A DNA stretch of 64,000 nt from an uncultured Pseudobdellovibrionaceae bacterium (GCA_964389375.1 CAYMDP010000010.1:9849-73848); one strand, 5' to 3'. Shown: positions 8,388 to 63,324, numbered from the stretch's first letter. The notes: generated by a model from the sequence alone, not told the origin. Numbers and translations: made by a program.

Positions 8388-8506
8388 GAGAAATTCTTCT
8401 ATCTAAATAAGTGTCCGCCGAAGACTAGTTCCGGAGGGGTGCCGAAGGCAGTCCGAGGATGTTCGACGGCTGAGGTGGAGCACTTATTTAGATAGAAAAA
8501 TTTCTC
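8388..8506. repeat. Hairpin element, copy A (short variant) of the conserved-core family
   Basis: Arms 8388-8413 and 8481-8506 are complementary (26 nt, 1 mismatch). The core starts GTG|TCCGCCGAAGACTAGTT and ends GTTCGACGGCTGAGGTGGAG|CAC. It lies between the stop of the 8533 gene and the trhO start. Confidence 0.9.
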
Positions 8507-10359: not shown

Positions 10360-11305
10360 TCAGTGCTTTAAAGGCATCCTTATTAAAAGGTTGACCCATG
10401 GTGTGCTCGATATACATCAAAGCTTCTCGAGGATTTTTTGGTACGGGACAGTTTACACCAGCAATAATCAAATCGCAAAACTGATCTGCAAGTCCGACGA
10501 TCTTCGCCAAAGGATGGATCTTAATATCTCGAATGCGTTGAGGGTAACCTTGGCCAATCGAATTCTCATGATGTTCGTAAACAATTGAGACGATATCATC
10601 GGGGACGATCCCCAGACTTAGCATCATCTGCATTCCTTTAAAGGCATGAGTCTCATAAATTTGAATTTCTTCAGGGGTCATCAGGGCTGTTGGTTTTTTA
10701 AGCAGGTCCCCCGGGATCGCTTTAAGTCCGATATCATGTAGCAATCCGCCTAAGGCCAATTTTTCTAAGGTGACCTTCTTTTCCCAGCCCATCTGAATTC
10801 CCATCAAGACCGAAAATGTACTAACGGCCATTGAATGAGCTAGCAAAGAGTCAGACTGAGATTTAATTCCTTCAATCAGGGCCGCAAGGTCTTTGTGGCT
10901 TTCAACCAAAGCGACCGTGGCTTCAGTGATAATCTTTGCATTTCCATAAGCCTCAAGACTAATCCCCAAAAGATCAAACTGTCGAAATACAGACTGAGCG
11001 GCAGCATTCATCACCGAAGACTTTACTTTTAAATCTAAGCTCTCTTTGCCAATTAAAATCCCGGCGACGGTTACGGTTTGATGGGTGATCTTTCCGTATT
11101 CAGAGCGCCTGACCCAAAGGTATTGCAGCTCTTTATTCTGGTAAGATTTAAGCTGATCTTTTTGAGTCTCTTGTCCGGCTTTTGCAATGCAAATAAAGCG
11201 TCCCTCAGAAAGTCGAACATAAATATCGACAGGGTTTTTAACTCCCGCAATAAACTCATTAATACTTATGGGGATCATATCTTTTGCTTCGATAATTCGT
11301 TTCAA
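10319..11305 (-). CDS. HD-GYP domain c-di-GMP phosphodiesterase-type protein (paralogue 1)
   Basis: 328-aa ORF with HD motif GGLLHDIGL, HHENSIGQGYP (HD-GYP signature) and an N-terminal sensory-like domain. Tandem paralogue of 11314..12291. Confidence 0.8.
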   Translation of the reverse strand: MKRIIEAKDMIPISINEFIAGVKNPVDIYVRLSEGRFICIAKAGQETQKDQLKSYQNKELQYLWVRRSEYGKITHQTVTVAGILIGKESLDLKVKSSVMNAAAQSVFRQFDLLGISLEAYGNAKIITEATVALVESHKDLAALIEGIKSQSDSLLAHSMAVSTFSVLMGIQMGWEKKVTLEKLALGGLLHDIGLKAIPGDLLKKPTALMTPEEIQIYETHAFKGMQMMLSLGIVPDDIVSIVYEHHENSIGQGYPQRIRDIKIHPLAKIVGLADQFCDLIIAGVNCPVPKNPREALMYIEHTMGQPFNKDAFKALSAVVGGDAKGKAS

Positions 11306-11313
11306 GAAGGCCC

Positions 11314-12291
11314 TTAGGCGATCTTGCTCCCTTTTAGCAAATTTCCCTCTACGATCATTCGCAAAGCTTTAAAGGCTTCCTTGTTGAAGGGCTGCCCCAT
11401 AGTGTGTTCAATATACATTAAGGCTTCTCGTGGACTTTTAACGACGGGCAGATTCGGATTGATCATAATCAAATCACAAAATTGATCTGCAAGACCAACA
11501 ATTTTAGCTAAGGGATGAATCTTGATGTCTCGAATCCGCTGAGGATAGCCCTGGCCCATCGAGTTTTCGTGATGTTCATAAACAATCGAGACAATGTCAT
11601 CCGGCACAATTCCTAAGCTCAACATCATCTGCATTCCTTTAAAGGGGTGATTCTCGTAAAGATCAGCCTCCTCAGGAGTCATTTGAGCCATAGGTTTATT
11701 CAGAATCTCTTTCGGGATTCTGCGCAGGCCAATATCGTGCAGAAGGCCGCCAAGAGCCAGCTTCTCTAGGGTTACTTTTTTCTCCCAGCCGATTTGGATT
11801 CCCATCATCACCGACAGCGCACTGACGGCCATAGAATGATTTAATAGCCAGTCTGAGCTTGTCGTTACCGCTTCAATCAAGGCCGAGAGATCTTTGTGAT
11901 TTTCGACAAGGGCCACGGTGACTTCTGTGACCATTTTGGCGTTCTGGTAAACCTCTAGGTCAAGTCCAAGGTGACTGAACTGATTAAATACGGACTTAGC
12001 GGCCGCTGAAACCAAATTGCTTTTCGTCTTAAAGTTAATGTTGTCTTTGGTGACAACAACGCCAGCGATGGCCACGGTTTGAAGAGTGACTTTTCCGTAC
12101 TCACTCTTTCGCACCCAGAGGTAACTGACTTCGCGGTCTTTGTATTTCGCCAACTGATCCTTTTGAGTGACCTGACCTTGTCGAGCCAAACAAACATAGC
12201 GGTCTTCAGAAAGACGAACGAAAACATCCACCGGAATTTTGGTTCCGGCCATAAACTCGTTAATGCTAATAGGAATCATTTCTTCAGCCAT
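11314..12291 (-). CDS. HD-GYP domain c-di-GMP phosphodiesterase-type protein (paralogue 2)
   Basis: 325-aa ORF with GGLLHDIGL and HHENSMGQGYP. Only 8 nt separate it from paralogue 1. Confidence 0.8.
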   Translation of the reverse strand: MAEEMIPISINEFMAGTKIPVDVFVRLSEDRYVCLARQGQVTQKDQLAKYKDREVSYLWVRKSEYGKVTLQTVAIAGVVVTKDNINFKTKSNLVSAAAKSVFNQFSHLGLDLEVYQNAKMVTEVTVALVENHKDLSALIEAVTTSSDWLLNHSMAVSALSVMMGIQIGWEKKVTLEKLALGGLLHDIGLRRIPKEILNKPMAQMTPEEADLYENHPFKGMQMMLSLGIVPDDIVSIVYEHHENSMGQGYPQRIRDIKIHPLAKIVGLADQFCDLIMINPNLPVVKSPREALMYIEHTMGQPFNKEAFKALRMIVEGNLLKGSKIA

Positions 12292-18801: not shown

Positions 18802-21183
18802 TTAGTTGGATTGTGAGAATCCAGTGTTGGTGACGCCATCAAACTTAAAGTTAAAGCTGATGTTGACTCGGCTATCACCACCCAGAACCTGCTGATGAAT
18901 AATATCGATATTCCAACAGTTCCCCGGTGGGTTGATGCTTGCCAAATATTGCCAGGATTGAATTCTAAAGTTCACATTTGAATAATCGAGTTGTCCGCTC
19001 ATCGTTAGATATTTGCTGGTGAAGCCCATTCCTAGACCAATGTTTTCAGTTTTACTATTTGGAACTTCGACGTTTTGCTCATCGACTAAAAAGCTTCTTG
19101 TGTAGGCCACTTGTCCAAAGTTTCCGTTGTCGGCAGTAACGCGCACTCGCGAACTTGAGTTCGTGACGTTTGCATAAGGATAATGAACGACGGCGGTGTT
19201 GGTCTCGAAATTATCATAGCGAACATCCAAAAGGGTATTAATCGCCGACCAGGGCTGTGGTTTTTCGGTGGCGGCTTCATTAAAGTCATAGGACTGATTA
19301 ATTCTAAAGGTAATGATGTTTTGGTAGACGGGGGCCCCGTTTTGCCAGATCTTTCGCGTCCAGCGATTGACCAAACCAAGATTTAAAATCCTTTGGTTAA
19401 AAAGACGATCATTGTTGTCGAACTGAAGTTTATTTCGACCAAAGACGTCTTCGTCACTAATTGGATTAAAAGTTTTAGAAAATTCGAGTCCGTCTAAATC
19501 GCCAAAAAATCCATGGCGAGTTCTTCGAGCCCAGGGAATTGTCGAGTAGGTCAGACTGGGTTCAATTTCGTGTCGATAGCGAGTCGCTTTTGGGTCTTCA
19601 GAAGGCTTAAGGATACTGCTAAACCGAGTTCTTAAGACATAGGAGTTTTCAATATACCTTCGAGCCGCACTGGGAGCGAAGTTCTCAGTAGCATCGATTC
19701 CCTCTTCGATCGGAAACTGATACTGAGTTTCTCGATATAAAAAAGTCGGAGTCAAAGTGAAGTAGGGTCCAAATGAAATCGGATAGGTCAGCTTGGGTTG
19801 AATGTCTAAACGCTGCCCAGTTCTCATAATGTCGCGGTCCGGATTAAACTGTCCGTCCCGAACTGTCTTTACACACTTTTCTGGAATACTTCCGTTTGGA
19901 AGCGGCGGACAGGCGGGGTCGCCTTTTGTCGAATCATTGACATCGTCATAGGAGAAACCGTCTCGGGCAAAATTGACGTAGTTAGCATCCATGCGAAATA
20001 ACAAATTCGAATCAAGGACTCTCTGGTCCATGATCGAATACTTAAGTTCTGGGATACGGTGAACCGCAGATTCGTTGCTGGCCAAGGGATCGGATTGAAG
20101 TAAATTGATATAAATCGATGCATCGGCGCTAAAGTGCTGGCGCTGCGTATTTTTAGTGAATGAAACTCTATTTTCGAGGGCGGGATCTCCGTGACCGGAC
20201 ATTTCTGTAGGGAAATCTCTAAGATAACGAAGGTCGCTCAGTCGGTTGAGCTGCACTCGGTGAGAAATATCTTCCGGCAAAAGATAGGCGTGACGGTAAT
20301 CTAAGAACCAACGGTTCGGAGCCGGACGATCGATCTCTTTACCGAAAGCCCGATCTTTAAGAAAGGCACTGCGAAATATTCCGCGACTTTCGTTTGAGGT
20401 CACGTAGCGGTACTCAGCAAGTCCCTTAAGGCCCCGTTTTTCGTAATGGGTTGCAGTTAAGGTCAGATCTTTACTTCTGCTGATCGCCCAGAAAAAACTT
20501 TGAGAGATCGCGAGTCCCCCAAGTTGAGAGACGTCATAAGATGGCACTAAAAACCCTGACTGCCGCGAGCTCTTTAGCGGGACAATCAAGCCGGGGAGGA
20601 TAAGAACTGGAACACCTCCCAGCCGAAGAACTGGACGAGAGATTTTTGCGTAGCCACCCATCTCGGCTTCGATGCGACTTCCGGTGAAGCTCCAGGCCGG
20701 TGGACATGTGACACATGCCGTGTACATGGCATCACTCGCGATATAGTCCTCGGGCCCCACCTTATCGATGACCTTGCCTTGAAAGACCACCTGGCCAGAT
20801 TGAACGAAGCCATTAAAAATTCGGCCCGTGTTGGTTTGATAATTAAAAACAACGCGGTCTCCTTCGACGTGAGTTTTGGGATTCTTCAAAACAACTTCGC
20901 CTTCGGCCTCAATCATTTTTTTATCAATATAGATTATGGCTTTTGTTGCCGAAAGGTATTGTCCCTGAAAAAGAACATGGACATTGCCCTCAAGAGTGAC
21001 CGTCTTTTTTCGAGTGTCACGAGACATTGAGTCCGCATTAATTAAAATTCCCTCAAGAGAGCTGCCGCCCTGAGCTTGTGCCCAGGCAATGTTGGAACTA
21101 AAAATGAATACCAAAAAATTGAGCAGGGCCAAGGCCAGAGCAAATCTAATTTGAATCTTAAGAGCTTCGAAAAATGGATTCAT
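18802..21183 (-). CDS. lptD: LPS-assembly outer-membrane protein LptD (OstA family)
   Basis: OstA-like N-domain (TLEGNVHVLFQGQYLSATKAIIYIDKKMIEAEGEVVL, YTACVTCPPAWSF) followed by a large beta-barrel region. ATG 21183 yields a clean signal peptide (MNPFFEALKIQIRFALALALLNFLVFIFSSNIAWA) and forms TAATG with the upstream stop. The ORF-track start is 21216. Confidence 0.75.
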   Translation of the reverse strand: MNPFFEALKIQIRFALALALLNFLVFIFSSNIAWAQAQGGSSLEGILINADSMSRDTRKKTVTLEGNVHVLFQGQYLSATKAIIYIDKKMIEAEGEVVLKNPKTHVEGDRVVFNYQTNTGRIFNGFVQSGQVVFQGKVIDKVGPEDYIASDAMYTACVTCPPAWSFTGSRIEAEMGGYAKISRPVLRLGGVPVLILPGLIVPLKSSRQSGFLVPSYDVSQLGGLAISQSFFWAISRSKDLTLTATHYEKRGLKGLAEYRYVTSNESRGIFRSAFLKDRAFGKEIDRPAPNRWFLDYRHAYLLPEDISHRVQLNRLSDLRYLRDFPTEMSGHGDPALENRVSFTKNTQRQHFSADASIYINLLQSDPLASNESAVHRIPELKYSIMDQRVLDSNLLFRMDANYVNFARDGFSYDDVNDSTKGDPACPPLPNGSIPEKCVKTVRDGQFNPDRDIMRTGQRLDIQPKLTYPISFGPYFTLTPTFLYRETQYQFPIEEGIDATENFAPSAARRYIENSYVLRTRFSSILKPSEDPKATRYRHEIEPSLTYSTIPWARRTRHGFFGDLDGLEFSKTFNPISDEDVFGRNKLQFDNNDRLFNQRILNLGLVNRWTRKIWQNGAPVYQNIITFRINQSYDFNEAATEKPQPWSAINTLLDVRYDNFETNTAVVHYPYANVTNSSSRVRVTADNGNFGQVAYTRSFLVDEQNVEVPNSKTENIGLGMGFTSKYLTMSGQLDYSNVNFRIQSWQYLASINPPGNCWNIDIIHQQVLGGDSRVNISFNFKFDGVTNTGFSQSN

Positions 21184-48294: not shown

Positions 48295-49737
48295 ATGCAC
48301 ATATTTTGGAAGGTCCTTTTTTTAATTCACTGCTTAAGCCTTGGGGCTTGCGCTTCCATGAATTGGAATGACCGTGAGGATATCGTTTCGATCGTCACTG
48401 AAAAGCCGGGTGCCGAGATCTATTTTAAAGATCGGATGCAGGGGACTACTCCGGCCTTTGTAAAGCTTCCTCGTGCTCGAAAGAATCAGATTCAGTTAAG
48501 CTATCCCGGAGAAGAACCTCAGACCTTTGTTTTGGATTCTAAATATCGCTGGGGCGATTCCTTTTGGGGGAATGCCATTCTCGGTGGTCTTGCACCCTTC
48601 GGTTGGGGCATCGATTTTTGGACTGGGGCGGCCTGGAATGTAAAGGCGGGAGAAGTCTATTCTTTACAAGGGAAGGGTCCAAAAGAACAAAAGACGACAA
48701 GCCCGATCTTGATAGCTCCACCGGTTGCAGAGGATGAAACTTTGTCTCTAGAAATTGCTACTCTTGTAGAAAAACGGATGCGAGAGCGTTTTCCGGATCG
48801 AAAGTGGAAGCCCTATGTCGAAACCGCGGATCTGTTTCACTTTTACCAACGAACTCACGAAGAACTGTTTCCACTAAGTGATTTAGCGCCTCTGTTCTAT
48901 TCGGCAAAGAGTACTCAGGTTCTTGAGACAGTGGTTCAAAAGCGCAAGGGCTTTGGCACTCATGCGATTGAAGCCTCTCTTAAGAATGCAATCTCTGGAG
49001 AGGTCGAAGACTATTATGTGTTTGAGGTTCCAGATGAAAGATTAGCTGCGCTAAAATTAAGTTGGTGGGAGCGGATGTGGAATAGCCAGTCCATTTGGCC
49101 CAATGTTTTGGCCCTAGATTTTTCCACAGGCATAAGTTCTATTGAAGACATCAACGGGAACATCCACCAAGCTGAAAATCGGCATTCCGAAGGCACTTTA
49201 AGTCAGGCCACTCGCTATTTGGGAAGCATAAGTCTGGCGCGGATTCAGCAAGGTCGAAGAACGAGTGGAGGGCGCTACCGCTTTTCGATGATTCCGGCAT
49301 TATTTTTCAGGTGGAATCAGTTGAACTTTCCAAGTGAGGCCCAAATCCGAGATGTCGAATTCGAGCGGCTGTTTCTATCAGTTGGATATGGACCTCGATT
49401 TGAATGGGTGTCTAATTTCGCAAATGTCTATTTGGATATTGTTCCGGGCCTTAGGTGGACCTCCGTGGAATACGATGGCCCATTGGCAAGTGGAATTGAA
49501 CAAGATACCAACATATTCGTTTTTACTGAGGCGGGTATAAGTCGATTTGTAAGTGAGCGTTGGGTGATTTCTTTATTCGTTAGAAGTGCAGGAGAGGATA
49601 TAGAGGTCTGGAAAAAGGCCCTCTCGGGAGCCTCGGACCAAAATTTCGCCTTACTTGATTTGCGGACAACGATTTCGGGAGCGCGTCTAGGATATTACTT
49701 TCCCGAGGGCTCAAAGAAGCTAAAATCCAGCTTCTGA
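48295..49737 (+). CDS. Hypothetical lipoprotein, possibly outer-membrane associated
   Basis: 480-aa ORF with a lipobox-like LSLGAC near the N-terminus. The C-terminal half is rich in alternating aromatic/polar beta-strand-like segments and ends in ...LKSSF. Confidence 0.5.
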   Translation: MHIFWKVLFLIHCLSLGACASMNWNDREDIVSIVTEKPGAEIYFKDRMQGTTPAFVKLPRARKNQIQLSYPGEEPQTFVLDSKYRWGDSFWGNAILGGLAPFGWGIDFWTGAAWNVKAGEVYSLQGKGPKEQKTTSPILIAPPVAEDETLSLEIATLVEKRMRERFPDRKWKPYVETADLFHFYQRTHEELFPLSDLAPLFYSAKSTQVLETVVQKRKGFGTHAIEASLKNAISGEVEDYYVFEVPDERLAALKLSWWERMWNSQSIWPNVLALDFSTGISSIEDINGNIHQAENRHSEGTLSQATRYLGSISLARIQQGRRTSGGRYRFSMIPALFFRWNQLNFPSEAQIRDVEFERLFLSVGYGPRFEWVSNFANVYLDIVPGLRWTSVEYDGPLASGIEQDTNIFVFTEAGISRFVSERWVISLFVRSAGEDIEVWKKALSGASDQNFALLDLRTTISGARLGYYFPEGSKKLKSSF

Positions 49738-49739
49738 TA

Positions 49740-49831
49740 GGTTCCAGGTCCCAAGTGGTAGCAGTGGCGCATCATTCGGCAGCTAGAAGCTCCAAATGAT
49801 GCGCCATTGCTAGCACTTGGGACCTGGAACC
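49740..49831. repeat. 92-nt extended hairpin (element D): 18-bp perfect outer arms with an AAGTG/CACTT junction and a second inner stem
   Basis: GGTTCCAGGTCCCAAGTG (49740-49757) is the exact reverse complement of 49814-49831. The inner arms TAGCAGTGGCGCATCATT / AATGATGCGCCATTGCTA differ only at one G:T position. Confidence 0.9.
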
Positions 49832-54400: not shown

Positions 54401-54903
54401 CGCCAAAATCAACGGTTCAGCTTTTTGGATTAGTCTCGAGTTTAAAAGAGTTTATTACCAAAAAAGGTACACGCATGGCCTTTTCTTCGATCGAAGATTT
54501 AACGGGTCGTGTGGAAGTCGTCGTTTTTCCAGATACTTTTGCGAAGACCGAGTTAATTTTAAAAAGTGAAGTTCCAGTCTTGATCTACGGCCAACTTGAG
54601 CGCGACGGAGAAGCCTGTAAGATTTTGCTCGAAGATGTGAAGCGAGTGGATGATATCTTTCAGCGTGCGAAAAAAATGACCTTTAAAATTTCTGAGGGCA
54701 TGGATGATCGCTTCGACAAACTTAAGGCTTTAGTCGAGCGTTACCCCGGAAACACAAGTCTTGGATTCCAAATGAAGCTTCAGAATCCCGATGCTGTTGT
54801 CGAACTGGATCTCTTAGAGCCCAAAGGCGTCCATGCGGGGCAAGAATTCTTCGAAGAAGTCCAAGGACTCTTTGGCCGCTCGGATTTTATCTCTCTGAAC
54901 TAG
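51430..54903 (+). CDS. dnaE: DNA polymerase III alpha subunit
   Basis: 1157-aa ORF with a PHP domain (FVHLHVHSQYSLLD), polymerase core motifs (PDFDIDF, GLIKFDFLGLKTL, YRPGPM) and an OB-fold C-terminus. Confidence 0.95.
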   Translation: MSFVHLHVHSQYSLLDATIRAKALVKRAKEFNQPAVALTDLGNLFGCIEFYFAALDAGVKPIVGLEVYIAPKGRLVKGEDKDASHMPNRRLVLLAQDMDGYHSLCALSTIGYQEGFYYRPRVDYEVLKKHNKGLIALTGGLMGEVPWTFKNRGPDEALQKIKELKDIYGDGLYLELNRTGVRDWDDINPFLVQAGKDLSVPIVATNDVHYLHQEDQLAQEVLICIASNKTLQDESRFKLGTDQFYFKSTESMQSLFQDLPEAIANTEVIMNRCNLKFKLKDEEGKPIYHLPTFPTAEGVGLAEEIKRLSFEGLEVRIEQAKARGEEIGPEQREVYKQRLEFELKVINGMGFDGYFLIVQDFINWAKKNNIPVGPGRGSGAGSLVAYSLFITDLDPMPYNLIFERFLNPERISMPDFDIDFCQENRGRVIDYVTEKYGQQSVSQIITYGKLQARAAIRDVGRVLGMTYADVDVISKLMPDKLGITLGEAIELEPRLREMMDQDPKVATLMDLAQKVEGLVRHAGIHAAGVVIADGSIMDHAPLYRGADGENVVQYDMKHAEKIGLIKFDFLGLKTLTHIQDALNLVEKNRGKKIATTEISLKDPGIYEIMCKGDTAGIFQFEGEGITDLIRKAKPNCFEDIVAINALYRPGPMDMIPDYLKRKNAEVSVSYIFDELEPILKETYGIVVYQEQVQIVAAKIANYSLGEADMLRRAMGKKIAEEMAIHKTRFLKGAEENKFDLKKAGELFDTMAEFAKYGFNKSHAAAYCVVAAQTAYLKNYYPVEFFAALLSTEMSDTDKVVKYVKDAQKRKIEVLPPHVNHSEYKFSVRGDQILFSLGAIKGVGQGAVEAIVEAREKLESKKFESLDQFFESLDLRRVNKKTIEALIKAGALDGFNAERSELMEGYSRFIERADRIKKDRDLGQVSLFAMDEELTKSERVVLEKKAPWPKSASLAFEKEVLGFYLSDHPLKGLEAVMSLWSKINVESLKTLPPKSTVQLFGLVSSLKEFITKKGTRMAFSSIEDLTGRVEVVVFPDTFAKTELILKSEVPVLIYGQLERDGEACKILLEDVKRVDDIFQRAKKMTFKISEGMDDRFDKLKALVERYPGNTSLGFQMKLQNPDAVVELDLLEPKGVHAGQEFFEEVQGLFGRSDFISLN

Positions 54904-54907
54904 TTCG

Positions 54908-55070
54908 TTTCAAAACTCTGTTTGCAATAAGAATAAGTGCTCCGCCTCAGCCGTCGGACATTCTCGGTCGGCCCCTAGGATTTAATTTGATAACCCGGAT
55001 TAAATTTGGGCCGACCTGCGAAACTAGTCTTCGGCGGACACTTATTCTTATTGCAAACAGAGTTTTGAAA
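54908..55070. repeat. Hairpin element, copy B of the conserved-core family (inverted relative to A and C)
   Basis: 32-nt arms 54908-54939 and 55039-55070 are exact reverse complements. The core contains CCTCAGCCGTCGGAC (54945-54959) and GTCTTCGGCGGA (55027-55038), which are the reverse complements of the copy A/C core ends. An inner stem GGTCGGCCC/GGGCCGACC is also present. The element starts 5 nt after the dnaE stop. Confidence 0.9.
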
Positions 55071-55240
55071 GATTTTGTAGATAAAATCCTCGGGACCTTA
55101 TGCATCGTTTTAGACTCTTTTCTGGACTCTTTGGGCAATTCGCTTTGGAGTGTGAAGATTTTCAACATCCAGCCAGCGGCACTTTTTCAGTTCGTAAGCA
55201 GAGATCCGGGATGTCTATTCGACTAATCTGGGGAAATCCA

Positions 55241-55567
55241 TTTTTTTGAAGTTCTTCTTCTAATTTTTAAAGTGTCCACCGAAGACCGGGTTGTATCCTA
55301 CAAATCCAGTCCATAGATGACGCCGAGATTTTTACTTATGGTGAGGCGCGACGACGATGGACTAGCGCAAGCTAATTCGAGGAGGAGCAACGAAGCCATA
55401 AGCAAAAATAACAAGTCAGCTATGGACTGGATTTGTAGGATACAGCCCTGTTTCGCAGGGCGGCCCAAAGGTCGACCTGGTTATTAAATATAGCCGACGG
55501 GCCGACCGAGAATGTCCGACGGCTGAGGGGGAGCACTTTAAAAATTAGAAGAAGAACTTCAAAAAAA
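55241..55567. repeat. Hairpin element, copy C of the conserved-core family, carrying two nested inner hairpin modules
   Basis: 34-nt arms 55241-55274 and 55534-55567 are exact reverse complements. Core ends are TCCACCGAAGAC (55275-55286) and GTCCGACGGCTGAGG (55514-55528). The nested module has 29-nt arms 55288-55316 / 55420-55448 (one T:G position). Inside that is a 13-nt-arm hairpin 55329-55341 / 55396-55408. Confidence 0.9.
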
Positions 55568-55608
55568 TATTTTTGTAAGTTCGCGGATTACATCTTTCGT
55601 GAATGTCT

Positions 55609-56721
55609 CTATTGAGAGTGGAGTCGGTTTCGCCAGAGGATGGGGCTTTTGATTAGGTTGTGGAGTAGGCTGGCTAGGGTCACTGCGATGAACATCAGGA
55701 ATCCTATTGGGAAAAACAGGATTCCGATCCAGGAAAATTCGCCGTAACTTTTGATAAGGGTGAAGAGTGCGAAAAGGGAGAGAGTGACTAGGAGTAAAGA
55801 AGCCGGGGTGCTGCCCCAGAGTCCCATTCCGCTGAGTGCAAAAAACACACTTGTGACTTTTAGAAAATCCAAGGGAGAGCTATATTTTTGTCCGAATCTA
55901 AAGATTCGGACCCAGCCTTTCCAGAATTCTTTAAAGCTGGAATACATTCGAACTTGATAGAGAGGACTCTTCGAGATTTCGTAGCGTCCTTGATTTTTAA
56001 GGCTTAGTTCAGCGATGGCCATGTCGTCTGCGGATTCATTGCGTACACTTTTGTGAGCTTCAATTTTTTCGTAAAAACTTCGTTTAAAAAGAAGAAACTG
56101 ACCGATGGCGTAGGGTTTTTTCCCATGGCTTGATGCAAAGGCCCTAGAGGCTATAAGCGTGAGGATTTGAAAGCTTCCCATGGCTTTTTCCCAAAGGCTT
56201 GGCGCCTTGTGAAAGGGGAGGGAGCTTAATAGATCTAGATCTTGATCTTTCATCATTCGAAGGGCTGTGCTGATTTGTTTTAGAGAATGAAGTGTATCGG
56301 CGTCGGTAAAAAGAATAAATTCTTTCGTGCAAAGCTTGGCCCCTTGATAGCAGGCCCAGTTTTTTCCTCTCCAACCGGCCTCTAGGGACTGCCCTTTAAG
56401 GACCCGACAGTTGAACTGAGTTGCGATTTCAGATGTTTTGTCCGTGGATTGATCGTCGACAACTATAATTTCGCTTATCTGTGAAGTTTTAGAGTGAGTT
56501 GTTAAGCTCGGCAGCAAGAGCTTTAGATTATCTTCTTCATCGCGGGCGGGAATGACGATCGACAATGAGTTTAAAAGATTTTGGTCGAATTCACTGTGCT
56601 TAATTTGATTTTGCTTAGCCTGGGAAATGCTTTTTGCGGCTTGCCCTAGGGCCTTAAAGAGTTCGCTGAGCCCGTAAATTGCGAAGGCTAAACTAAGTCC
56701 CGACCAAAGAGTGAACTCCAC
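55609..56721 (-). CDS. Family 2 glycosyltransferase, CrtQ-like (candidate carotenoid glycosyltransferase)
   Basis: 370-aa ORF with IVIPARDEEDNL, VVDDQSTDKT, AGWRGKNWACYQG, FTDADT and terminal TM helices. This motif order resembles staphylococcal CrtQ as I recall it, and the gene sits next to a crt cluster. Confidence 0.55.
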   Translation of the reverse strand: MEFTLWSGLSLAFAIYGLSELFKALGQAAKSISQAKQNQIKHSEFDQNLLNSLSIVIPARDEEDNLKLLLPSLTTHSKTSQISEIIVVDDQSTDKTSEIATQFNCRVLKGQSLEAGWRGKNWACYQGAKLCTKEFILFTDADTLHSLKQISTALRMMKDQDLDLLSSLPFHKAPSLWEKAMGSFQILTLIASRAFASSHGKKPYAIGQFLLFKRSFYEKIEAHKSVRNESADDMAIAELSLKNQGRYEISKSPLYQVRMYSSFKEFWKGWVRIFRFGQKYSSPLDFLKVTSVFFALSGMGLWGSTPASLLLVTLSLFALFTLIKSYGEFSWIGILFFPIGFLMFIAVTLASLLHNLIKSPILWRNRLHSQ

Positions 56722-56726
56722 AGGTT

Positions 56727-57305
56727 TTAAAGGCTCATTAGCTTCAAGGTTTCGGCAACACCCGGATAACCTTGATCAAACCAATGCCACCAAGCTGCGA
56801 TCATGATCAAGTGCCCGGTTAAGATAAAGACATGAGACCACATCTCGAAGCGGTCCGAATTTTTTGAATAGTAGCGGTGCCAATGAAAGGCCTCATCGAT
56901 CACGCTGTACAGAATGCTTAAGAAGATCAAAACCGCTGCGGGGATTTTCATAAACTCTGCGTGGTTATAAGCCAAACAAAGAGCCAGCACCGATGTGATC
57001 CCGGCAAATATAGTCACATGATGAACCAGAGCTTCTGCTTTTTTTAGTTCTTCTTTGTAGCGAGTTCGGTGTCCGATGGTGTCGACAGAAATCGCCGCCA
57101 CAAAGATGAAGGTTCCTATCGGAATATTCCAAACATAAGCCGGATAAACGACGCCCCCGAAGTATCCGATCATTACAAAGCCCGTCACGCTGAATAAAAG
57201 CCCCAGCATCAGGCCAACCCAAGCGACGTAAGCCAGCCAATCTTTTTTTGTAAAAAGGCGCACTTGTGAGGTGTACTCAAAGGCTTCTCGAACAAAGGCT
57301 GTCAC
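56727..57305 (-). CDS. Hypothetical polytopic membrane protein with His-rich motifs
   Basis: 192-aa ORF with about 5 hydrophobic helices. His clusters are HRTRYKEE...LVHH, FHWHRYY and HLIMIAAWWHW. It lies 5 nt upstream of the GT2 gene. Confidence 0.45.
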   Translation of the reverse strand: MTAFVREAFEYTSQVRLFTKKDWLAYVAWVGLMLGLLFSVTGFVMIGYFGGVVYPAYVWNIPIGTFIFVAAISVDTIGHRTRYKEELKKAEALVHHVTIFAGITSVLALCLAYNHAEFMKIPAAVLIFLSILYSVIDEAFHWHRYYSKNSDRFEMWSHVFILTGHLIMIAAWWHWFDQGYPGVAETLKLMSL

Positions 57306-57396
57306 ATTTTCCTCCTCGGCTTTGCAGATTTATACCAAGTTTGGCTGCGGGCTCCCAAGTTAAAATCCATTTCCCACGGGCCTCTGCTAAGCTGCG

Positions 57397-58131
57397 TTAA
57401 CGAAATCTTTCCATCTGATCTTTGCTTATGGCCCAGGTCGCAAGAATCAGAAATACGGCGGTATATCCAAGTAAAGTCCAGGCACTTGGATGCGGAATTT
57501 TTTGATTAAGTACGACAGACCAAAGAACTTCTCCCAAGTGCCGGGTGGGTAATAAATTCGAAAGACCATGCAGACTTTCTGGCAACAGTTGAGGGGGTTT
57601 CCAAAGACCCCCGATAAAGGAAAGCGGCAGATAAACTAAATTTGCCATCGGCAAGGCCGCTTTTTTCGAGACCAGGTAGGCAAAGGCCAGACCCATGAAA
57701 GCAAATGGAATCGAGCAAAGTAAAAGAAGCGCAATAAACTGAAGCCATTGAGCCAGAGACAGCTGTGCAGGGGTCCAAATAAGCGCAACTAAAATCACCA
57801 GCGCCAAGGTAAGGAAGGCGAAGCAGAGTGCGCACAGACTGCGAGCCAGCAGAATCAAATTGGGTGCGAGAGGGAGGCTTCGAAGATAAAGATTCCAAGG
57901 CGAGCTTCGTTCTTCAGCGACGCCTACGCCAAACTGAAAGAAAACGACACCAAAAATTGCAAAACATGAAAATGAGGCCATCAGAATATTCGCGATTTCT
58001 TCGCTATGAGCCTCAGGCACTCCGAAGATTAGAAAAAAACCTGCAGGAAATATTAAGGTCGGAACCAAGTAGCTGGGTTGGCGAAGATGTTCTAAAAGTA
58101 AAGCCCAAGTGTGAATCAACAATAGCTTCAT
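57397..58131 (-). CDS. ABC-2-type transporter permease
   Basis: 244-aa ORF with six hydrophobic helices. ATGA overlap with the upstream ATPase gene. Confidence 0.65.
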   Translation of the reverse strand: MKLLLIHTWALLLEHLRQPSYLVPTLIFPAGFFLIFGVPEAHSEEIANILMASFSCFAIFGVVFFQFGVGVAEERSSPWNLYLRSLPLAPNLILLARSLCALCFAFLTLALVILVALIWTPAQLSLAQWLQFIALLLLCSIPFAFMGLAFAYLVSKKAALPMANLVYLPLSFIGGLWKPPQLLPESLHGLSNLLPTRHLGEVLWSVVLNQKIPHPSAWTLLGYTAVFLILATWAISKDQMERFR

Positions 58132-59006
58132 GGTGTTTGCTCCAGTGTGAGCTTCAAAAAGGCCTCTTCCAAAGTTGGCGTCTGGATCTCTAAGTCTTGA
58201 AAATTTTGTTTCAGTCCAACGAGTTCGCGGACATATTCGTCAGGGTCCGTGGTCCAAACTTCAAATTGATCACCGGTTTTAATAAATTCACTTTGGCTTT
58301 GTGTACGAAGATTGTCTGTTGAGGAAAAGCGAACTTTTTTGAGACCTACTTTTTGTTTTGCGGTCTGAATCTCTGAGTCAAAAAGGAGCCGACCTTTTTG
58401 CAGAATAAGGGCGCGATCCGTAAGGAATTCAGCCTCTTCAAAGTGATGCGTGGTCAAAAGCAAACTGACTTCATGTTTCGTAACATAAGACTTAATCAAA
58501 TGAAGAAGATTTTTTCTAGACTCAAAGTCTAATCCAGTTGTCGGCTCATCCAATAAAACCAAGCGCGGTCGGCCCGCAAAAGTACAGGCCAGAGCCAGTT
58601 TGCGTTTTTCACCGCCGCTTAGACCTCCGCATTGGCGATTTGAAATCATCTCAAGCTGAAAGAGTTGAATCAGCTCATTAAGCCCTTCAGGGTCTTTGTA
58701 GTGAGATCTGACAAGATAAAGAATTTCTTTCACTTTCAAGTGATCGCTGAATCCTAAATGCTGAGGAGTGAGGCCCAATTGGGAGCGACTTGTTGCATTT
58801 CGGGGATCCTGGCCAAACAGCAAAATCTTTCCTTGATCGGGGCCCCGCAGGCCAGCTGCCATAGAATAAAGCGTGGATTTACCCGCGCCATTTGCACCGA
58901 GAAGTGAAAGGCATTCTCCTTTACTGATTTGAAATGAGATTTTGTCTAAGACTCGCCTGGAGCCAAAGTTCTTCGTCACTTCATTAAATTGGAGTTCAGC
59001 CATCAA
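58128..59006 (-). CDS. ABC transporter ATP-binding protein
   Basis: Walker A GANGAGKST, signature LSGGEKRKL and Walker B LVLLDEPTTGLD. Confidence 0.9.
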   Translation of the reverse strand: MMAELQFNEVTKNFGSRRVLDKISFQISKGECLSLLGANGAGKSTLYSMAAGLRGPDQGKILLFGQDPRNATSRSQLGLTPQHLGFSDHLKVKEILYLVRSHYKDPEGLNELIQLFQLEMISNRQCGGLSGGEKRKLALACTFAGRPRLVLLDEPTTGLDFESRKNLLHLIKSYVTKHEVSLLLTTHHFEEAEFLTDRALILQKGRLLFDSEIQTAKQKVGLKKVRFSSTDNLRTQSQSEFIKTGDQFEVWTTDPDEYVRELVGLKQNFQDLEIQTPTLEEAFLKLTLEQTP

Positions 59007-59040
59007 TTATTCACCGCATTATTATGCTGGATCGGTTTGA

Positions 59041-59050
59041 GCTCGCGAGC
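59041..59050. promoter_or_regulatory. Perfect 10-bp palindrome GCTCGCGAGC in the divergent ABC/crtE control region (candidate operator)
   Basis: Self-complementary 10-mer located about 22 nt upstream of a TACAAT -10-like hexamer (59072-59077). No function is demonstrated. Confidence 0.3.
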
Positions 59051-59082
59051 CTATTCAATCCCCGTGAGACTTACAATATATT

Positions 59083-60162
59083 TTGAAATCTGCCCCCGAA
59101 GCCGTTAAGGTTCTCGGGTTAAATCGAAATTTCGAGGGGTTCTTTTTGCTTCAAAATTTAGAGCACTTTCCTAAAGAAGAGGCCTTGCCTCTGGTGGAAA
59201 GTTTTATGCAGCAATTAATTTTGAAAGATGGCCCGGGCCCCCTGGCCGCGATGCTTCTGGAGCATCTTTCAAGCGGAGGTCGACGTTTGCGGGCTCATCT
59301 GTCGCTCGCCGTCTTCCGCAGTTTAAATTGCGATATTCAATCTGTCCTTCCTTGGGCTGCGGCTTGTGAACTTCTGCATAATGCCACTTTAATTCATGAT
59401 GATATTCAAGATGGGGATCTCATCCGGCGAGGGCAAAAGACTTTGTGGGCTCGTCACGGGATTGCTCAGGCCATAAATGCGGGCGATCAAATGTTGATTC
59501 TTCCCTTTCGCGCCTTGTGCGAGCTGAAGGCCTCTTCAGATTTAAAACTTCTTCTTAACGAGGAACTGGCTCAGTGTGCGTCTCGTGTTGTTCAAGGCCA
59601 GACTGAAGAGTTTCATCTTAAGAGTGAAATAGATCAGCCGAATTTATGGGACCGCTATTTAAAGGTGATTGATTGTAAAACCGCGGCCTTATTTGGTAGC
59701 CCAGTGTTTGGGGCTCTTTTGCTCGCTGGAGAAAGTCCAGAGGAGGCTAAAAAAGCAAAATTTGTTTTTGGGCGGCTTGGACGTGCCTTTCAGTTGGTTG
59801 ACGATCTAGTCGACCTAAAGGGGCGTAAAAAGGGTCGAAGAGCGGGTGATGATTTGCGTGAGGGAAAAGTCTCAAGCCCCTTGGTGAAGTATCTCGAAAT
59901 TCGTCATGAAAAAAAACAAGACATCAAAACTTTGATTCATCAAAATCGTGGCGAAAAAAATGAAGAAGTGGTGCAAAAGATTTTGTGGGAAATGGACGAG
60001 CTTGGACTGTCACAGTTAATTGAAGTCGAGGTCCAGTTATTATTAGAATCCTTTCAGTCGGAAATTTCGGTCATCTCGGGAGGAAGGCTTTCTGAAATTG
60101 CGAATCAAATTTGCAAAAAAATTCTTCAACCTTTAAGTGAATCGAAGGTGATCTATGTCTAA
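59083..60162 (+). CDS. crtE: Polyprenyl (geranylgeranyl) diphosphate synthase, CrtE-like
   Basis: First Asp-rich motif LIHDDIQDGD and second LVDDLVD, in a crt gene context. The start is uncertain: the TTG at 59083 lies only 6 nt after the -10-like box, and the first in-frame ATG is at 59206. Confidence 0.75.
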   Translation: MKSAPEAVKVLGLNRNFEGFFLLQNLEHFPKEEALPLVESFMQQLILKDGPGPLAAMLLEHLSSGGRRLRAHLSLAVFRSLNCDIQSVLPWAAACELLHNATLIHDDIQDGDLIRRGQKTLWARHGIAQAINAGDQMLILPFRALCELKASSDLKLLLNEELAQCASRVVQGQTEEFHLKSEIDQPNLWDRYLKVIDCKTAALFGSPVFGALLLAGESPEEAKKAKFVFGRLGRAFQLVDDLVDLKGRKKGRRAGDDLREGKVSSPLVKYLEIRHEKKQDIKTLIHQNRGEKNEEVVQKILWEMDELGLSQLIEVEVQLLLESFQSEISVISGGRLSEIANQICKKILQPLSESKVIYV

Positions 60163-61699
60163 GTCAGATCTTCCTGTGATTGTTATTGGATCAGGTTTTG
60201 GTGGGATGGCTTCCGCGGTCCGCATGAGAGCAAAGGGTTATAAAGTAATCCTTCTTGAAGCCCATAATCAACTCGGGGGAAGAGCCGCTGTTTTTAAGCA
60301 AGACGGCTTTACTTTTGATGCCGGTCCAACCGTTATCACGGCTCCTTATTTAATCGCAGAACTTTTTGAAATGCTCGGTGAGGACCCTAAGGATTTTTAC
60401 GAGCTGATGCCCGTCGATCCCTTCTACCGAATTCTTTACCCTGATGGATCTCAGTTTGATTATGTCGGAGATGAAGATCGGCTGATCGAAAATATTCGAA
60501 AGCTTAGCCCCGAAGATGTAGAGGGTTACAAAAAATTAGCTGAACACTCGAGTCGAATCTTTGATGTAGGTTATACCCAGCTTGCAGATCAGCCCTTCCT
60601 TCGGGTTTCAGATATGCTTCGTGTGTTGCCGGATATGCTAAAGCTTGAAAACTATAAAACGGTTTATGCATTGGTCTCTAAGTACATTAAGGACGAACGG
60701 CTCAGGCAGGCCTTTAGCTTTGAGCCCCTTTTGGTGGGTGGGAATCCATTTCAGATCACCTCAATTTATCTTTTAATCCATTGGCTCGAAAGAAAGTGGG
60801 GTGTCCACTTTGTTAAGGGTGGAACCACAGCCTTGGTTGAAGCCTTTGGACTTTTGATGCAAAAACACAATATCGGAGTTCGACTGAATACAAAGGTCTC
60901 TAGGATTGATGTTGAAGAGGGTAAAGTGCGGGGAGTCGTGACGGACTCTGGAGAGCGCATCGCTTGCCAGATGGTGATCTCAAATGCGGATCCAATTAAA
61001 GTTTATTCTGAGATGGTGGATAAAAAATTTCGTAAAAAAAATACGGACCGCTCGCTTAAGAATAAAAGAAGCTCGATGGGTCTATTCGTCGCTTATTTTG
61101 GAACAAAGAAAACTTACCCAGAGCTTGCGCACCACACGATAGTTCTTGGGCCTCGGTACAAAGGGCTGTTACATGATATTTTTAACAAGAAGGTCCTTGC
61201 CGATGACTTTAGCCTTTATCTTCATGCACCCACTCGTTCGGATGCAAGCATGGCTCCTGAGGGGCATGAGTGCTTTTATGTTCTTTCTCCGGTCCCAAAC
61301 AATCAAAGTGGATTAAATTGGTCTGAAATTGGGGATGCTTACTGCGACAAAATTTTGTCAGCACTCGAAGATAAACTTCTGCCTGGCTTAAGGGAAAACT
61401 TGGTGACGAAGCATTTTGTGACTCCGGATTATTTTGAAAAGACTTTGCACAGCGCAAGGGGAGCGGGCTTTGGAATTGAGCCCTGTTTTACTCAGTCGGC
61501 CTATTTTCGCTTTCATAATAAGTCGGAAGATATTGAGGGCTTATATTTTGTAGGGGCCAGCACTCATCCCGGAGCCGGTGTTCCAGGAGTTTTATCTTCA
61601 GCAAAAGTTTTAGAGAGATTGATTCCTGATTTGGATCGAAGACGACCTTTACCGATTGTGCAGAATGCGATGCCACGTGATTTGGAGGCCCCGCTGTGA
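60155..61699 (+). CDS. crtI: Phytoene desaturase
   Basis: 514-aa ORF with an N-terminal FAD fold VIVIGSGFGGMASA and a C-terminal CrtI-type motif YFVGASTHPGAGVPGV. It overlaps crtE by 8 nt. Confidence 0.9.
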   Translation: MSKSDLPVIVIGSGFGGMASAVRMRAKGYKVILLEAHNQLGGRAAVFKQDGFTFDAGPTVITAPYLIAELFEMLGEDPKDFYELMPVDPFYRILYPDGSQFDYVGDEDRLIENIRKLSPEDVEGYKKLAEHSSRIFDVGYTQLADQPFLRVSDMLRVLPDMLKLENYKTVYALVSKYIKDERLRQAFSFEPLLVGGNPFQITSIYLLIHWLERKWGVHFVKGGTTALVEAFGLLMQKHNIGVRLNTKVSRIDVEEGKVRGVVTDSGERIACQMVISNADPIKVYSEMVDKKFRKKNTDRSLKNKRSSMGLFVAYFGTKKTYPELAHHTIVLGPRYKGLLHDIFNKKVLADDFSLYLHAPTRSDASMAPEGHECFYVLSPVPNNQSGLNWSEIGDAYCDKILSALEDKLLPGLRENLVTKHFVTPDYFEKTLHSARGAGFGIEPCFTQSAYFRFHNKSEDIEGLYFVGASTHPGAGVPGVLSSAKVLERLIPDLDRRRPLPIVQNAMPRDLEAPL

Positions 61700-62568
61700 A
61701 GGCGGAGCTGCAAAAATCCCTTAAACCAAATCCCGCAATGGCCCAGCATGCGAAGTCCTTTTCGTGGGCTTCTTTCTTTTTTTCTTCAGAAGTTTTCTAC
61801 GATGTTTGTGCGCTTTATCTTTTTTGCAGAACGGTCGATGACATTGCAGATAAAGAAGAGCCATCTCGGGCAAGGGGGCGGCTGAATGACTTAAAAGAGA
61901 AGCTGTCTCAATTTCATCCCGAGGATAAATTTACGGACCAAAGCCTTCACAATTTGCATCGACTTCATTTTGAAAAAGGCCTACCTCTTGCCCAGGCTGT
62001 CGAATTGATTGACGGGGCACTGAGTGACCTGGATCGCAGTCGTGTCGCAGATGAAGCTGAATTCTTGCATTACTGCTACCAAGTCGCAGGGACTGTAGGT
62101 TTGATGATGTGTCCTTTGATTGGAGTTCGTGATCCGATGGCGGCTGAGCACGCGAAGAGTCTTGGCATTGCCATGCAAATGACCAATATTTGTAGAGACG
62201 TCAAAGAAGATGCCGAGATGGGCCGAGTGTATTTGCCCGAAACATGGTTAAGTGAAGTCGGTCTAAGTTCTGAGCAAGTATTAAATGGACAGGCGGATTC
62301 GGCAAAGCTTTCAAAGGTGGTGTGCCGAGCCCTTTCCTTGGCCGATCAGTACTACCGCCATGCGGATCGTGGGATGGTCTTTATTCCTTTTCGTCCACGT
62401 TTAAGTATTGTGGTGGCGAGCCGAATTTATAGAGCCATTGGTTTAGAGCTGCAAAAACGTCGATTTAACCCAATGTTAGGACGAGTTTTTGTAAGCCCCT
62501 ATAAAAAAATAATTTGGTCACTAAAAGCAGTTTGGGCGGCCGTGTTTGCTGGCGCAATAAAGGGCTAG
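61696..62568 (+). CDS. crtB: Phytoene synthase
   Basis: Squalene/phytoene synthase signatures YLFCRTVDDIAD and MQMTNICRDVKEDAEMGRVYLP. The GTG start overlaps the crtI stop (GTGA). Confidence 0.9.
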   Translation: MKAELQKSLKPNPAMAQHAKSFSWASFFFSSEVFYDVCALYLFCRTVDDIADKEEPSRARGRLNDLKEKLSQFHPEDKFTDQSLHNLHRLHFEKGLPLAQAVELIDGALSDLDRSRVADEAEFLHYCYQVAGTVGLMMCPLIGVRDPMAAEHAKSLGIAMQMTNICRDVKEDAEMGRVYLPETWLSEVGLSSEQVLNGQADSAKLSKVVCRALSLADQYYRHADRGMVFIPFRPRLSIVVASRIYRAIGLELQKRRFNPMLGRVFVSPYKKIIWSLKAVWAAVFAGAIKG

Positions 62569-62571
62569 TCG

Positions 62572-63324
62572 ATGACCTATATGCAGTTTCATTTTATCTT
62601 TACCTTGCCTCTGATGAGCTTATTTCTGTTTTTGTCCATTAAGAAATATCCAACAGAATTTAAACCCTACGCTTTGGGGATGGCCCTACTTTCGGTTTTG
62701 GCTCTGGTCTACACCACTCCCTGGGATAATTACATCGTCGCAAAGGGGGTTTGGTCCTATCCCCCGGACAGAGTTCTTCTAGTCATCGGATATGTCCCCT
62801 TCGAAGAGTATCTGTTTTTCTTGATTCAAACTTGGTTGTCGGGATCCTTCTTTTTTTTACTGACCAGAAAATTTCCAGAAAAATTTGTCGCAAAAAGATC
62901 TTGGGCCTTAAATATATCTGCTGGAGTTTTTTCTCTTCTTCTTTGCGGCACTGGGGTTTACTTCCTGTTTTCGGATTCAACATTTTATCTAGGGATGATT
63001 TTATCTTGGGTGGCTCCTGTTTGGGGTCTTCAGTGGGTCTATGCTTTGGATCATCTGGTGCGTAACATAAAAATTGTTTTTGGATCAATTCTGATGCTTT
63101 CAGTTTACCTTTCGGTTGCAGATAAAATTGCAATCTCGAGTGAGATTTGGACGATCTCAGATCAATTTACGACTGGAATTCAGCTTTTTGGTCTTCCCAT
63201 GGAAGAAGCACTGTTCTTTTTTGCCACAAATGTAATGGTCATTCAGGGCCTAAGCTTATTTGTTGCAGGCCCCAGATACTGGCCCTTTAGGGCTTTTCCA
63301 CGTGTGATGTCGCGCGTTTTTTAG
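62572..63324 (+). CDS. Fused CrtYc/CrtYd-type lycopene cyclase
   Basis: 250-aa polytopic protein with the duplicated lycopene-cyclase-domain motifs TPWDNYIVAKGVWSY..PFEEYLFF and IWTISD...LPMEEALFFF. Confidence 0.8.
   Translation: MTYMQFHFIFTLPLMSLFLFLSIKKYPTEFKPYALGMALLSVLALVYTTPWDNYIVAKGVWSYPPDRVLLVIGYVPFEEYLFFLIQTWLSGSFFFLLTRKFPEKFVAKRSWALNISAGVFSLLLCGTGVYFLFSDSTFYLGMILSWVAPVWGLQWVYALDHLVRNIKIVFGSILMLSVYLSVADKIAISSEIWTISDQFTTGIQLFGLPMEEALFFFATNVMVIQGLSLFVAGPRYWPFRAFPRVMSRVF

Follow-up and report, generated by a model that had tools for sequence, protein, structure and literature searches.

A three-copy family of foldback repeats with near-perfect, copy-specific stems at gene 3' ends in an uncultured Pseudobdellovibrionaceae bacterium

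INTRODUCTION

The palindromic repeats of bacteria that come closest to the elements reported here are the REP, BIME, and REPIN sequences (Di Nocera et al. 2013, PMC3733652; Bertels & Rainey 2011, PMC3116915). These are non-coding and intergenic, lie near the 3' ends of open reading frames, as a rule where the neighboring genes are convergent or co-directional, are frequently found as inverted pairs, and are presumed to be transcribed as RNA hairpins. A REP unit is 20 to 40 bp long, with a conserved stem of 8 to 9 bp and a short loop, and most units lie no more than 20 bp from the 3' end of a convergent ORF, where they are thought to be transcribed and to act as RNA (PMC3733652). REPs carry a terminal unpaired tag, GTAG or CGTC, and those of the CGTC type have no known dedicated transposase.

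Two further classes of element are relevant for comparison. MITEs, such as the Correia elements of Neisseria, ERIC/IRU, and the RPE of Rickettsia, are small (100 to 350 nt), non-coding, and multi-copy, form long hairpins, and may be co-transcribed with neighboring genes. The members of a MITE family have in common the terminal inverted repeats to which the transposase binds, and MITEs make target-site duplications. For MITEs generally, the nesting of one element in another is well known. Integron attC sites are imperfect palindromes found 3' of genes, with a constant orientation, and are recognized as folded single strands through their unpaired bases, not through stem sequence. They conserve outer R''/R' boxes (RYYYAAC/GTTRRRY) and vary in their middle part, and they are known targets of secondary insertions (IS1111-attC elements and group IIC introns).

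A separate body of work concerns a mutational process rather than a family of elements. Template switching homogenizes and expands the arms of inverted repeats and can produce perfect hairpins (PMC13100816; PMC8794818).

Here, we describe a hairpin-shaped repeat that is previously undescribed, in the sense that it is new to the databases searched. All three known copies of the family come from a single metagenome-assembled contig of an uncultured Pseudobdellovibrionaceae bacterium, of which 64 kb were examined; we refer to this whole stretch of 64,000 nt as the window. An earlier note on the same DNA had proposed that three hairpin elements are nested one inside another in a single locus downstream of dnaE.

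RESULTS

Three foldback elements share a conserved core

One foldback family is represented in the window by three members, copies A, B, and C, all of them small (119 to 329 nt) and non-coding. Copies B and C lie between the convergent genes dnaE and GT2, as seen from ORF maps and Pfam, in a gap of 705 nt that runs from the stop of dnaE (54903) to the stop of the minus-strand GT2 gene (55609). They were rightly described before as close neighbors that fill most of this gap: they are 169 nt apart and take up 492 of the 705 nt. Copy A is found 46 kb away from both. The features of the family are as follows.

8388-8506, plus strand: copy A, 119 nt, with 26-nt arms (25 of 26 positions paired) and a short apical domain
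54908-55070, minus strand: copy B, 163 nt, with perfect 32-nt arms (54908-54939 / 55039-55070) and an uninterrupted core
55240-55568, plus strand: copy C, 329 nt including the insert M2, 166 nt without it
55240-55274, plus strand: left basal arm of copy C, 35 nt, with its perfect partner at 55534-55568
55534-55568, plus strand: right basal arm of copy C, from the repeat scan
55275-55286, plus strand: 5' core fragment of copy C, TCCACCGAAGAC, ending at the insertion point
55450-55533, plus strand: 3' core part of copy C, comprising GTTTCGCAGG, the apical hairpin, and the conserved GAGAATGTCCGACGGCTGAGGGGGAG
55458-55466 / 55499-55507: apical hairpin of copy C, GGGCGGCCC and GGGCCGACC

An exact core string of 29 nt occurs twice, in B and in C, and a third, diverged copy is found in A. 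The cores of B and C are identical at 39 of 41 positions in their 3' part and at 36 of 49 in their apical part. When an nhmmer profile of the three cores was run against the window and about 100 kb of DNA from relatives, it matched A, B, and C only, with E values from 2e-34 to 2e-17.

Written on one strand, the three copies align as arm - AAGTG - TCCRCC - GAAGAC TAG TTYCG - apical hairpin - GAGRATGTYCGACGGCTGAGG N GGAG - CACTT - arm'. Four parts make up this architecture: an AT-rich basal stem of 26 to 35 bp; a conserved helix, TCCRCC/GGNGGA; a conserved asymmetric internal loop, GAAGACTAGTTYCG opposite GAGRATGTYCGACGGCTGA, which contains a bulge of about 9 nt (GACGGCTGA); and a variable apical hairpin that is short in A and about 50 nt long in B and C. 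GC content is 55 to 64% in the cores and 17 to 26% in the arms, the left arm of C having 17% outside the shared AAGTG.

Predicted folds show the same rod with the conserved internal loop in all three copies, with z scores from -9 to -23. The predicted folding energy of copy C as single-stranded DNA is -99 kcal/mol, compared with -35 for shuffled sequences (z = -22.9), and copy B, folded as RNA of the mRNA-sense strand, reaches -88.6 kcal/mol (z -13.2). The pairing of the arms in C, and of the middle and inner arms within M2, is far beyond chance. A protein-coding reading of the elements was rejected, as the frames are broken, with stops in most of them, and have no homologues.

The long stems are near-perfect within copies and differ between copies

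The basal stems are complementary almost without exception. Pairing extends over 35 of 35 positions in C (outer arms that the earlier note had also called perfect, at 34 nt), 32 of 32 in B, and 25 of 26 in A, which gives 92 of 93 in total with no G:U pair. The sole mismatch, in copy A, is C:A on the family strand and would read as a G:U wobble on the mRNA-sense strand.

Compared from copy to copy, the basal stems differ, and only the innermost AAGTG is common to all. The arms of B resemble those of C no better than shuffled sequence does (P = 0.76), and comparisons of the B arms with those of A and C give P values of 0.76 to 0.85 and scores at background level. The arms of A and C are related (GAAATTCTTCTATCTAAAT versus GAAGTTCTTCT-TCTAATT, at 8388-8413 and 55246-55269, respectively). 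Their similarity has a P value of 0.001 by shuffles and scores above 99.8 to 99.98% of genomic 30-mers, and each difference between the two is mirrored in the partner arm. Despite these homologous arms, A and C have the most divergent pair of cores. The family is thus a mosaic, in which A combines arm type 1 with a short core, C combines arm type 1 with a long core, and B combines arm type 2 with a long core.

Judged from these three copies, no single-tree history fits the mosaic, which points to modular exchange or assembly of palindromic parts. Taken with the mirrored differences, the mosaic implies concerted evolution of the two arms within a copy, with arms that may be exchanged or replaced relative to cores. 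Strict Watson-Crick pairing over AT-rich stems of 26 to 35 bp points, in turn, to copying of one arm from the other at the level of DNA. Selection at the level of RNA would be a poorer fit, because G:U pairs would be tolerated.

The repeat scan also identified a shorter inverted repeat around copy B.

54882-54892 (left) / 55079-55089 (right): perfect 11-nt inverted repeat bracketing copy B

The axis of this repeat lies at 54985.5, versus 54989 for B itself. Its left half falls within the last codons of dnaE (D-F-I-S), and a DF(I/V) motif recurs in the DnaE C termini of relatives, so the right, intergenic half is more likely to be the derived copy. This suggests that hairpin B may have been extended outward by copying of coding sequence to the intergenic side.

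A second foldback interrupts the core of copy C

Copies A and B carry an uninterrupted GAAGAC-TAG-TT, which contains the hexamer palindrome ACTAGT. In the 5' loop of the core of copy C, the central TA of this hexamer is replaced by a further foldback, M2.

55287-55449, plus strand: M2, a 163-nt foldback unrelated to the family, with arms at 55288-55316 / 55420-55448
55328-55409, plus strand: upper part of M2, a 14-nt stem (55328-55341 / 55396-55409) and the apical TAGC-GCAA-GCTA (55363-55374)

Much of what the earlier note had seen here is confirmed. It had read the core of copy B as GAAGAC-TAG-TTTCGCAGG, which is correct on the family strand and extends to A, where the same site is uninterrupted, and it had placed an insert in C at exactly that point, where we find 163 nt that are missing from A and B. 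Its description of the middle arms as 29 nt with a single T:G position was likewise accurate: at 55288-55316 / 55420-55448, 28 of 29 positions pair, the one mismatch being T55291:G55445. These arms extend to 37 nt at 92% (55285-55321 / 55415-55451), and they seem to reach into the core because AC...GT is retained around M2.

The symmetry axes of M2 (55368) and copy C (55404) lie 36 nt apart, and when M2 is removed in silico, C becomes coaxial with its own apical stem to within 2 nt. The simplest reading is that M2 is a secondary insertion into one strand of the core of C, since A and B keep the intact site and M2 has long arms of its own and lies off the axis of C. One nesting event is supported in this way.

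A third level of nesting had been claimed for a hairpin with 13-nt arms inside the insert. Such arms are present, although in that register they pair at 12 of 13 positions, with one A:C mismatch that had gone unmentioned; at 55328-55341 / 55396-55409 they pair at 13 of 14, with the one A:C mismatch, and 1,000 dinucleotide shuffles of the 93-nt interior of M2 gave at most 11 matches against the 13 observed. The innermost hairpin and the apical TAGC-GCAA-GCTA share the axis of the M2 arms (55368-55368.5), and the "third" hairpin is therefore the upper stem of M2 itself, not a separate insertion. M2 is built like the family elements, from a basal stem, an internal loop of 6/5 nt, a second stem, and an apex, and we found no empty site or independent copy pointing to a third insertion. 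As far as sequence can tell, the locus is a two-level nest and not a three-level one, so that of the nesting first proposed, M2 within C stands and the innermost level does not. Repeated, site-preferring mobility, which had been deduced from the nesting, shrinks accordingly to a single event, although the mosaic of arms and cores is in the spirit of that proposal. The interior of the insert had also been thought to echo the family core; this we could not substantiate, as local alignment against shuffles gave P values of 0.05 to 0.99 and the nhmmer core profile found nothing there. M2 is single-copy in all data searched.

All three copies lie at the 3' ends of genes

The genes flanking A and C on the minus strand, as given by the ORF map and Pfam, are the following.

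8533-10359, minus strand: MutS-domain-V gene
55609-56721, minus strand: GT2 gene

Each of the three copies is located 4 to 40 nt 3' of a stop codon and in the same orientation relative to that gene. The distance from the stop codon is 26 nt for the end of copy A (MutS-domain-V gene) and 40 nt for the end of copy C (GT2 gene), and copy B begins 4 nt past the stop codon of dnaE. The family strand is antisense to the upstream gene in three of three copies, and the transcript of that gene would in each case carry the reverse complement of the family strand as written here. With n = 3, this orientation rule has a 1-in-4 probability by chance.

We examined the elements for signals of transcription. 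No U-tract or run of T's lies 3' of the stem of any hairpin, and a consensus terminator scan found nothing at the outer ends of B or C; the three matches it gave are at chance level, one of them inside the apical hairpin of the core of C. A canonical intrinsic terminator was rejected as an identity for the elements, given stems of 17 to 26% GC with no U-tract 3' of them. No promoter-like signal is found inside the elements; one match touches the outer end of the left arm of B, and the number of promoter-like matches in the region is at chance level. Rfam gave no match at gathering score across the whole window and none for the elements even at E = 10; scores over 54850-55650 were noise only (15 to 17 bits, versus the 40 to 44 needed). 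A scan for tRNA and tmRNA genes was also negative.

The window is ordinary chromosome. The best non-self matches of its DnaE are MAG proteins labeled Bdellovibrionales, the nearest of which is 73% identical, and an exact-protein look-up found neither the DnaE nor the GT2 of the window on record. Gene order 5' of dnaE (radical-SAM, BFN, hexapeptide transferase, IMPDH, guaA, dnaE) is common to relatives, and synteny with them (IMPDH - guaA - dnaE) stops exactly at the dnaE stop codon (54903/54904). In the orthologous regions of the relatives, the next gene (photolyase or others) follows within 10 to 190 nt of dnaE and without a hairpin element; in this genome, dnaE is followed by the repeat-filled gap of 705 nt and then by a convergent gene cluster. 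Among 50 scanned of the 57 window ORFs of at least 120 aa, Pfam identified no transposase, integrase, recombinase, or Y1/RAYT.

Searches for further copies

To look beyond the window, we searched GTDB genomes, JGI metagenomes, viral contigs, plasmids, phages, 5.8 billion proteins, and about 100 kb of DNA from relatives, collections from which the source genome and its close relatives are absent. No other copy of the family or of M2 was found in them, and neither M2 nor its inner stem, which had been taken for mobile modules, occurs on its own in the window, in the relatives, or in these public collections without the source genome. A scan of GTDB representatives for the exact core pattern of 19 specified bases gave 4 matches, all due to chance (e.g., in Kitasatospora, Streptosporangium, and Polaromonas), and the same pattern gave 13 matches in JGI metagenomes, all on contigs of 56 to 73% GC that do not have the 5' core. 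In viral contigs there were no matches to the family core and none to the M2 arm, and the whole 705-nt gap had no blastn match (distant mode) among plasmids and phages. Six-frame composite peptides of M2 and the family core, designed to reveal other copies that had been annotated as spurious ORFs, had no match at E ≤ 10 among the 5.8 billion proteins. Neither a family member nor M2 is present at the dnaE loci of relatives (L005, L006, and L020 to L024), where long inverted repeats are almost absent too.

Absence from these collections says that the family is probably restricted to its lineage; it is not proof of immobility. We infer mobility, or spread, from one empty-site comparison.

Long hairpins of other kinds do occur in this group. 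A fourth in the window, unrelated to the family, is located at 49740-49831 and has 40-nt arms matching at 93%, a 12-nt loop (CAGCTAGAAGCT), and a predicted RNA fold of -79 kcal/mol. It begins 2 nt past the stop of a 480-aa unknown gene (48295-49737), upstream of guaA, and looks like an inserted palindromic element because L020 has only 39 nt between the homologous genes. L005, the relative whose DnaE is 73% identical, carries two hairpins that are unrelated in sequence to the elements of the window, one at 1544-1592 with perfect 24-nt arms and a 1-nt loop and one at 19452-19542 with 38-nt arms at 97%. No such long near-perfect hairpins are present in L020, L023, and L024 (60 kb).

DISCUSSION

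The family fits neither the REP nor the MITE definition, as it has no GTAG/CGTC tag, no shared termini, and no target-site duplication. By analogy, the placement of A, B, and C near ORF 3' ends is REP/BIME-like, and their size is that of MITEs. The units differ from REPs in their size (119, 163, and 166 nt, the last being C without M2), in outer stems of 26 to 35 bp, and in their untagged ends, which are AT-rich arms; the one place where CGTC is seen is not terminal but within the internal loop on the mRNA-sense strand (CAGCCGTCGGAC). What the family conserves is an internal loop and an inner helix, whereas the long outer stem is not conserved, and the window contains no RAYT gene. Unlike a MITE family, the elements have termini that differ between B and A/C, no direct repeat flanks A, B, C, or M2, and M2 replaces the TA at its site without duplicating it.

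The comparison with attC sites runs in the opposite direction, since here the middle is conserved and the outer parts vary. The element ends (GAGAAATT.., TTTCAAAAC.., and ATTTTTTTG..) do not read as R''/R' boxes, the flanking genes are housekeeping and convergent rather than a cassette array, and no integrase is encoded in the window. Template switching (PMC8794818; PMC13100816; PMC5453318) would explain the perfect arms, the compensated differences between A and C, and the variable arm length. It would also explain stems that reach flanking or coding sequence, as in the 11-nt repeat overlapping dnaE. It leaves the dispersed core and the 163 nt of M2 unexplained.

Our preferred reading, which we hold tentatively and at somewhat less than even confidence, is that these are lineage-specific foldback repeats that supply a hairpin at gene 3' ends, that M2 struck copy C, and that the stems are kept perfect by intrastrand copying. 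The family would be a REP/BIME- or MITE-like dispersed repeat that has spread within this lineage, a reading that draws on the relatives, in which the 10 to 190 nt after dnaE contain no such hairpins. Position and orientation suggest that the element would be transcribed at the mRNA 3' end as a very stable stem-loop, probably a 3'-end barrier or stabilizer, and the conserved loop is a candidate recognition site for a trans-acting protein, either a mobilizing enzyme or an RNA- or DNA-binding factor. M2 would be a second, independent foldback that landed in the core of C, where it probably disables the recognition loop and leaves the basal stem intact. The copy-specific perfect stems may owe their complementarity to DNA-level copying, with one arm serving as the template for the other. 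One possibility is intrastrand template switching during replication, which would homogenize and extend the inverted repeats; another is that one arm is regenerated from the other whenever the element is copied. Several observations sit poorly with this preferred reading. There are no target-site duplications, no conserved terminal repeats, and no transposase, RAYT, or integrase among the 50 scanned ORFs. The likeness of the A and C arms, together with the unrelated arms of B, is not predicted by simple local growth of arms. There are only three copies, among which spread is deduced rather than observed and the orientation rule retains its 1-in-4 chance probability.

The mosaic relations of arms and cores among A, B, and C would also be expected if the arms were an older palindromic repeat and the core a mobile module that inserts at palindrome centers (AAGTG/CACTT), with M2 behaving likewise at ACTAGT. 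The whole locus would then be palindromes stacked within palindromes, close to what the earlier note had proposed. M2 does lie at the exact center of that hexamer and has left AC...GT extending its arms, a further inverted repeat of 11 nt surrounds B, and there are other long hairpins without a core (49740-49831 in the window; 1544-1592 and 19452-19542 in L005). We nevertheless regard this account as unlikely. No arm-only palindrome of type 1 or type 2 is found in the window, M2 occupies one strand of an internal loop and not the apex or dyad of the family hairpin, and the third level is coaxial with M2 and has no known empty site; moreover, M2 is a single event, and no enzyme of such specificity is encoded nearby. 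Quite unlikely, in our judgment, is a vertically inherited structured RNA or DNA element, such as a 3'-UTR hairpin or a protein-binding cruciform, whose stem may take any sequence that preserves pairing and in which M2 is a tolerated expansion. A conserved internal loop combined with helices of variable sequence is the classic signature of structural constraint, the position and orientation relative to upstream genes are constant, and hallmarks of transposition (target-site duplications and a transposase) are missing, all as such an element would have it. However, strict Watson-Crick pairing at 92 of 93 positions with no G:U is not the product of RNA-level selection, and Rfam has no match even at E = 10. 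Relatives lack the element as well, both in their orthologous dnaE 3' regions and over about 100 kb of sequence, the genes beside it have unrelated functions (a MutS-domain-V protein, DnaE, and GT2), and the conserved loop is split by M2. More doubtful still is a bolder proposal, that the elements represent a new class of foldback whose core alone is inherited as sequence, whose stem is rebuilt at each copying or continuously homogenized, and whose preferential insertion at palindrome dyads gives rise to nests.

Two remaining accounts have much less to recommend them. Perfect inverted repeats of 26 to 35 bp around short segments, with B in the opposite window orientation to A and C, resemble invertons, in which the repeats are recombination sites that flip the enclosed core. 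However, the segments enclosed in A and B (67 to 99 nt) are very short for site-specific inversion, and the pattern of differing repeats around a conserved middle is the reverse of invertons served by one invertase. With no recombinase in the window, no promoter-like signal inside the elements, and an orientation that tracks the upstream gene in three of three copies, inversion is very improbable. Perfect palindromic junctions are a known class of assembly artifact, and the source here is a metagenome contig, in which inverted duplications could be made by chimeric reads or by the assembler. This is the least credible of the explanations: the same diverged core appears with different arms at three separate internal loci between intact ORFs, one arm position has decayed in one of the copies (25 of 26 paired), and both M2 and the hairpin at 49740 carry ordinary point mismatches.

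What sets the family apart is that the long stem of each copy is perfect, yet copy-specific. If the pattern holds genome-wide, the family would let one ask, in a clean natural setting, what keeps long inverted repeats perfect in bacteria: template switching, hairpin-directed repair, and regeneration of one arm from the other by a copy mechanism are the candidates. The way in which palindromic repeats colonize the 3' ends of genes is a second question on which it would bear. The elements add an unannotated repeat family in a poorly sampled lineage of predatory bacteria and mark a synteny breakpoint directly 3' of dnaE. With three copies on one contig, they are for now a well-documented curiosity and not a discovery.

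Other features of the window

Three kilobases or so from copy A, a minus-strand gene (4253-5512) encodes a 419-aa protein in which the only domain recognized is an HNH nuclease motif at the C-terminal end (residues 364-402). The genes beside it (3410-4033 and 6284-7036) are without family matches, and this region may be a small accessory island. The idea of an IscB protein with an omega-RNA at this site was rejected, as the NCBIfam IscB model matches the HNH motif only, at 39.8 bits versus a cutoff of 175. Two adjacent, paralogous HD_5/HD-domain genes (10319-11305 and 11314-12291, both on the minus strand) lie directly upstream of the MutS-domain-V gene. On the convergent side of the dnaE locus, the region 55609-63324 resembles a carotenoid or isoprenoid-glycoside cluster. 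It comprises the GT2 gene and genes for a 192-aa membrane protein, an ABC-2 transporter pair, a polyprenyl synthetase, an amine-oxidase-type desaturase, a phytoene/squalene synthase, and a lycopene-cyclase domain protein, and its GT2 has weak matches to HpnB and to the carotenoid 2'-O-glycosyltransferase CruG.
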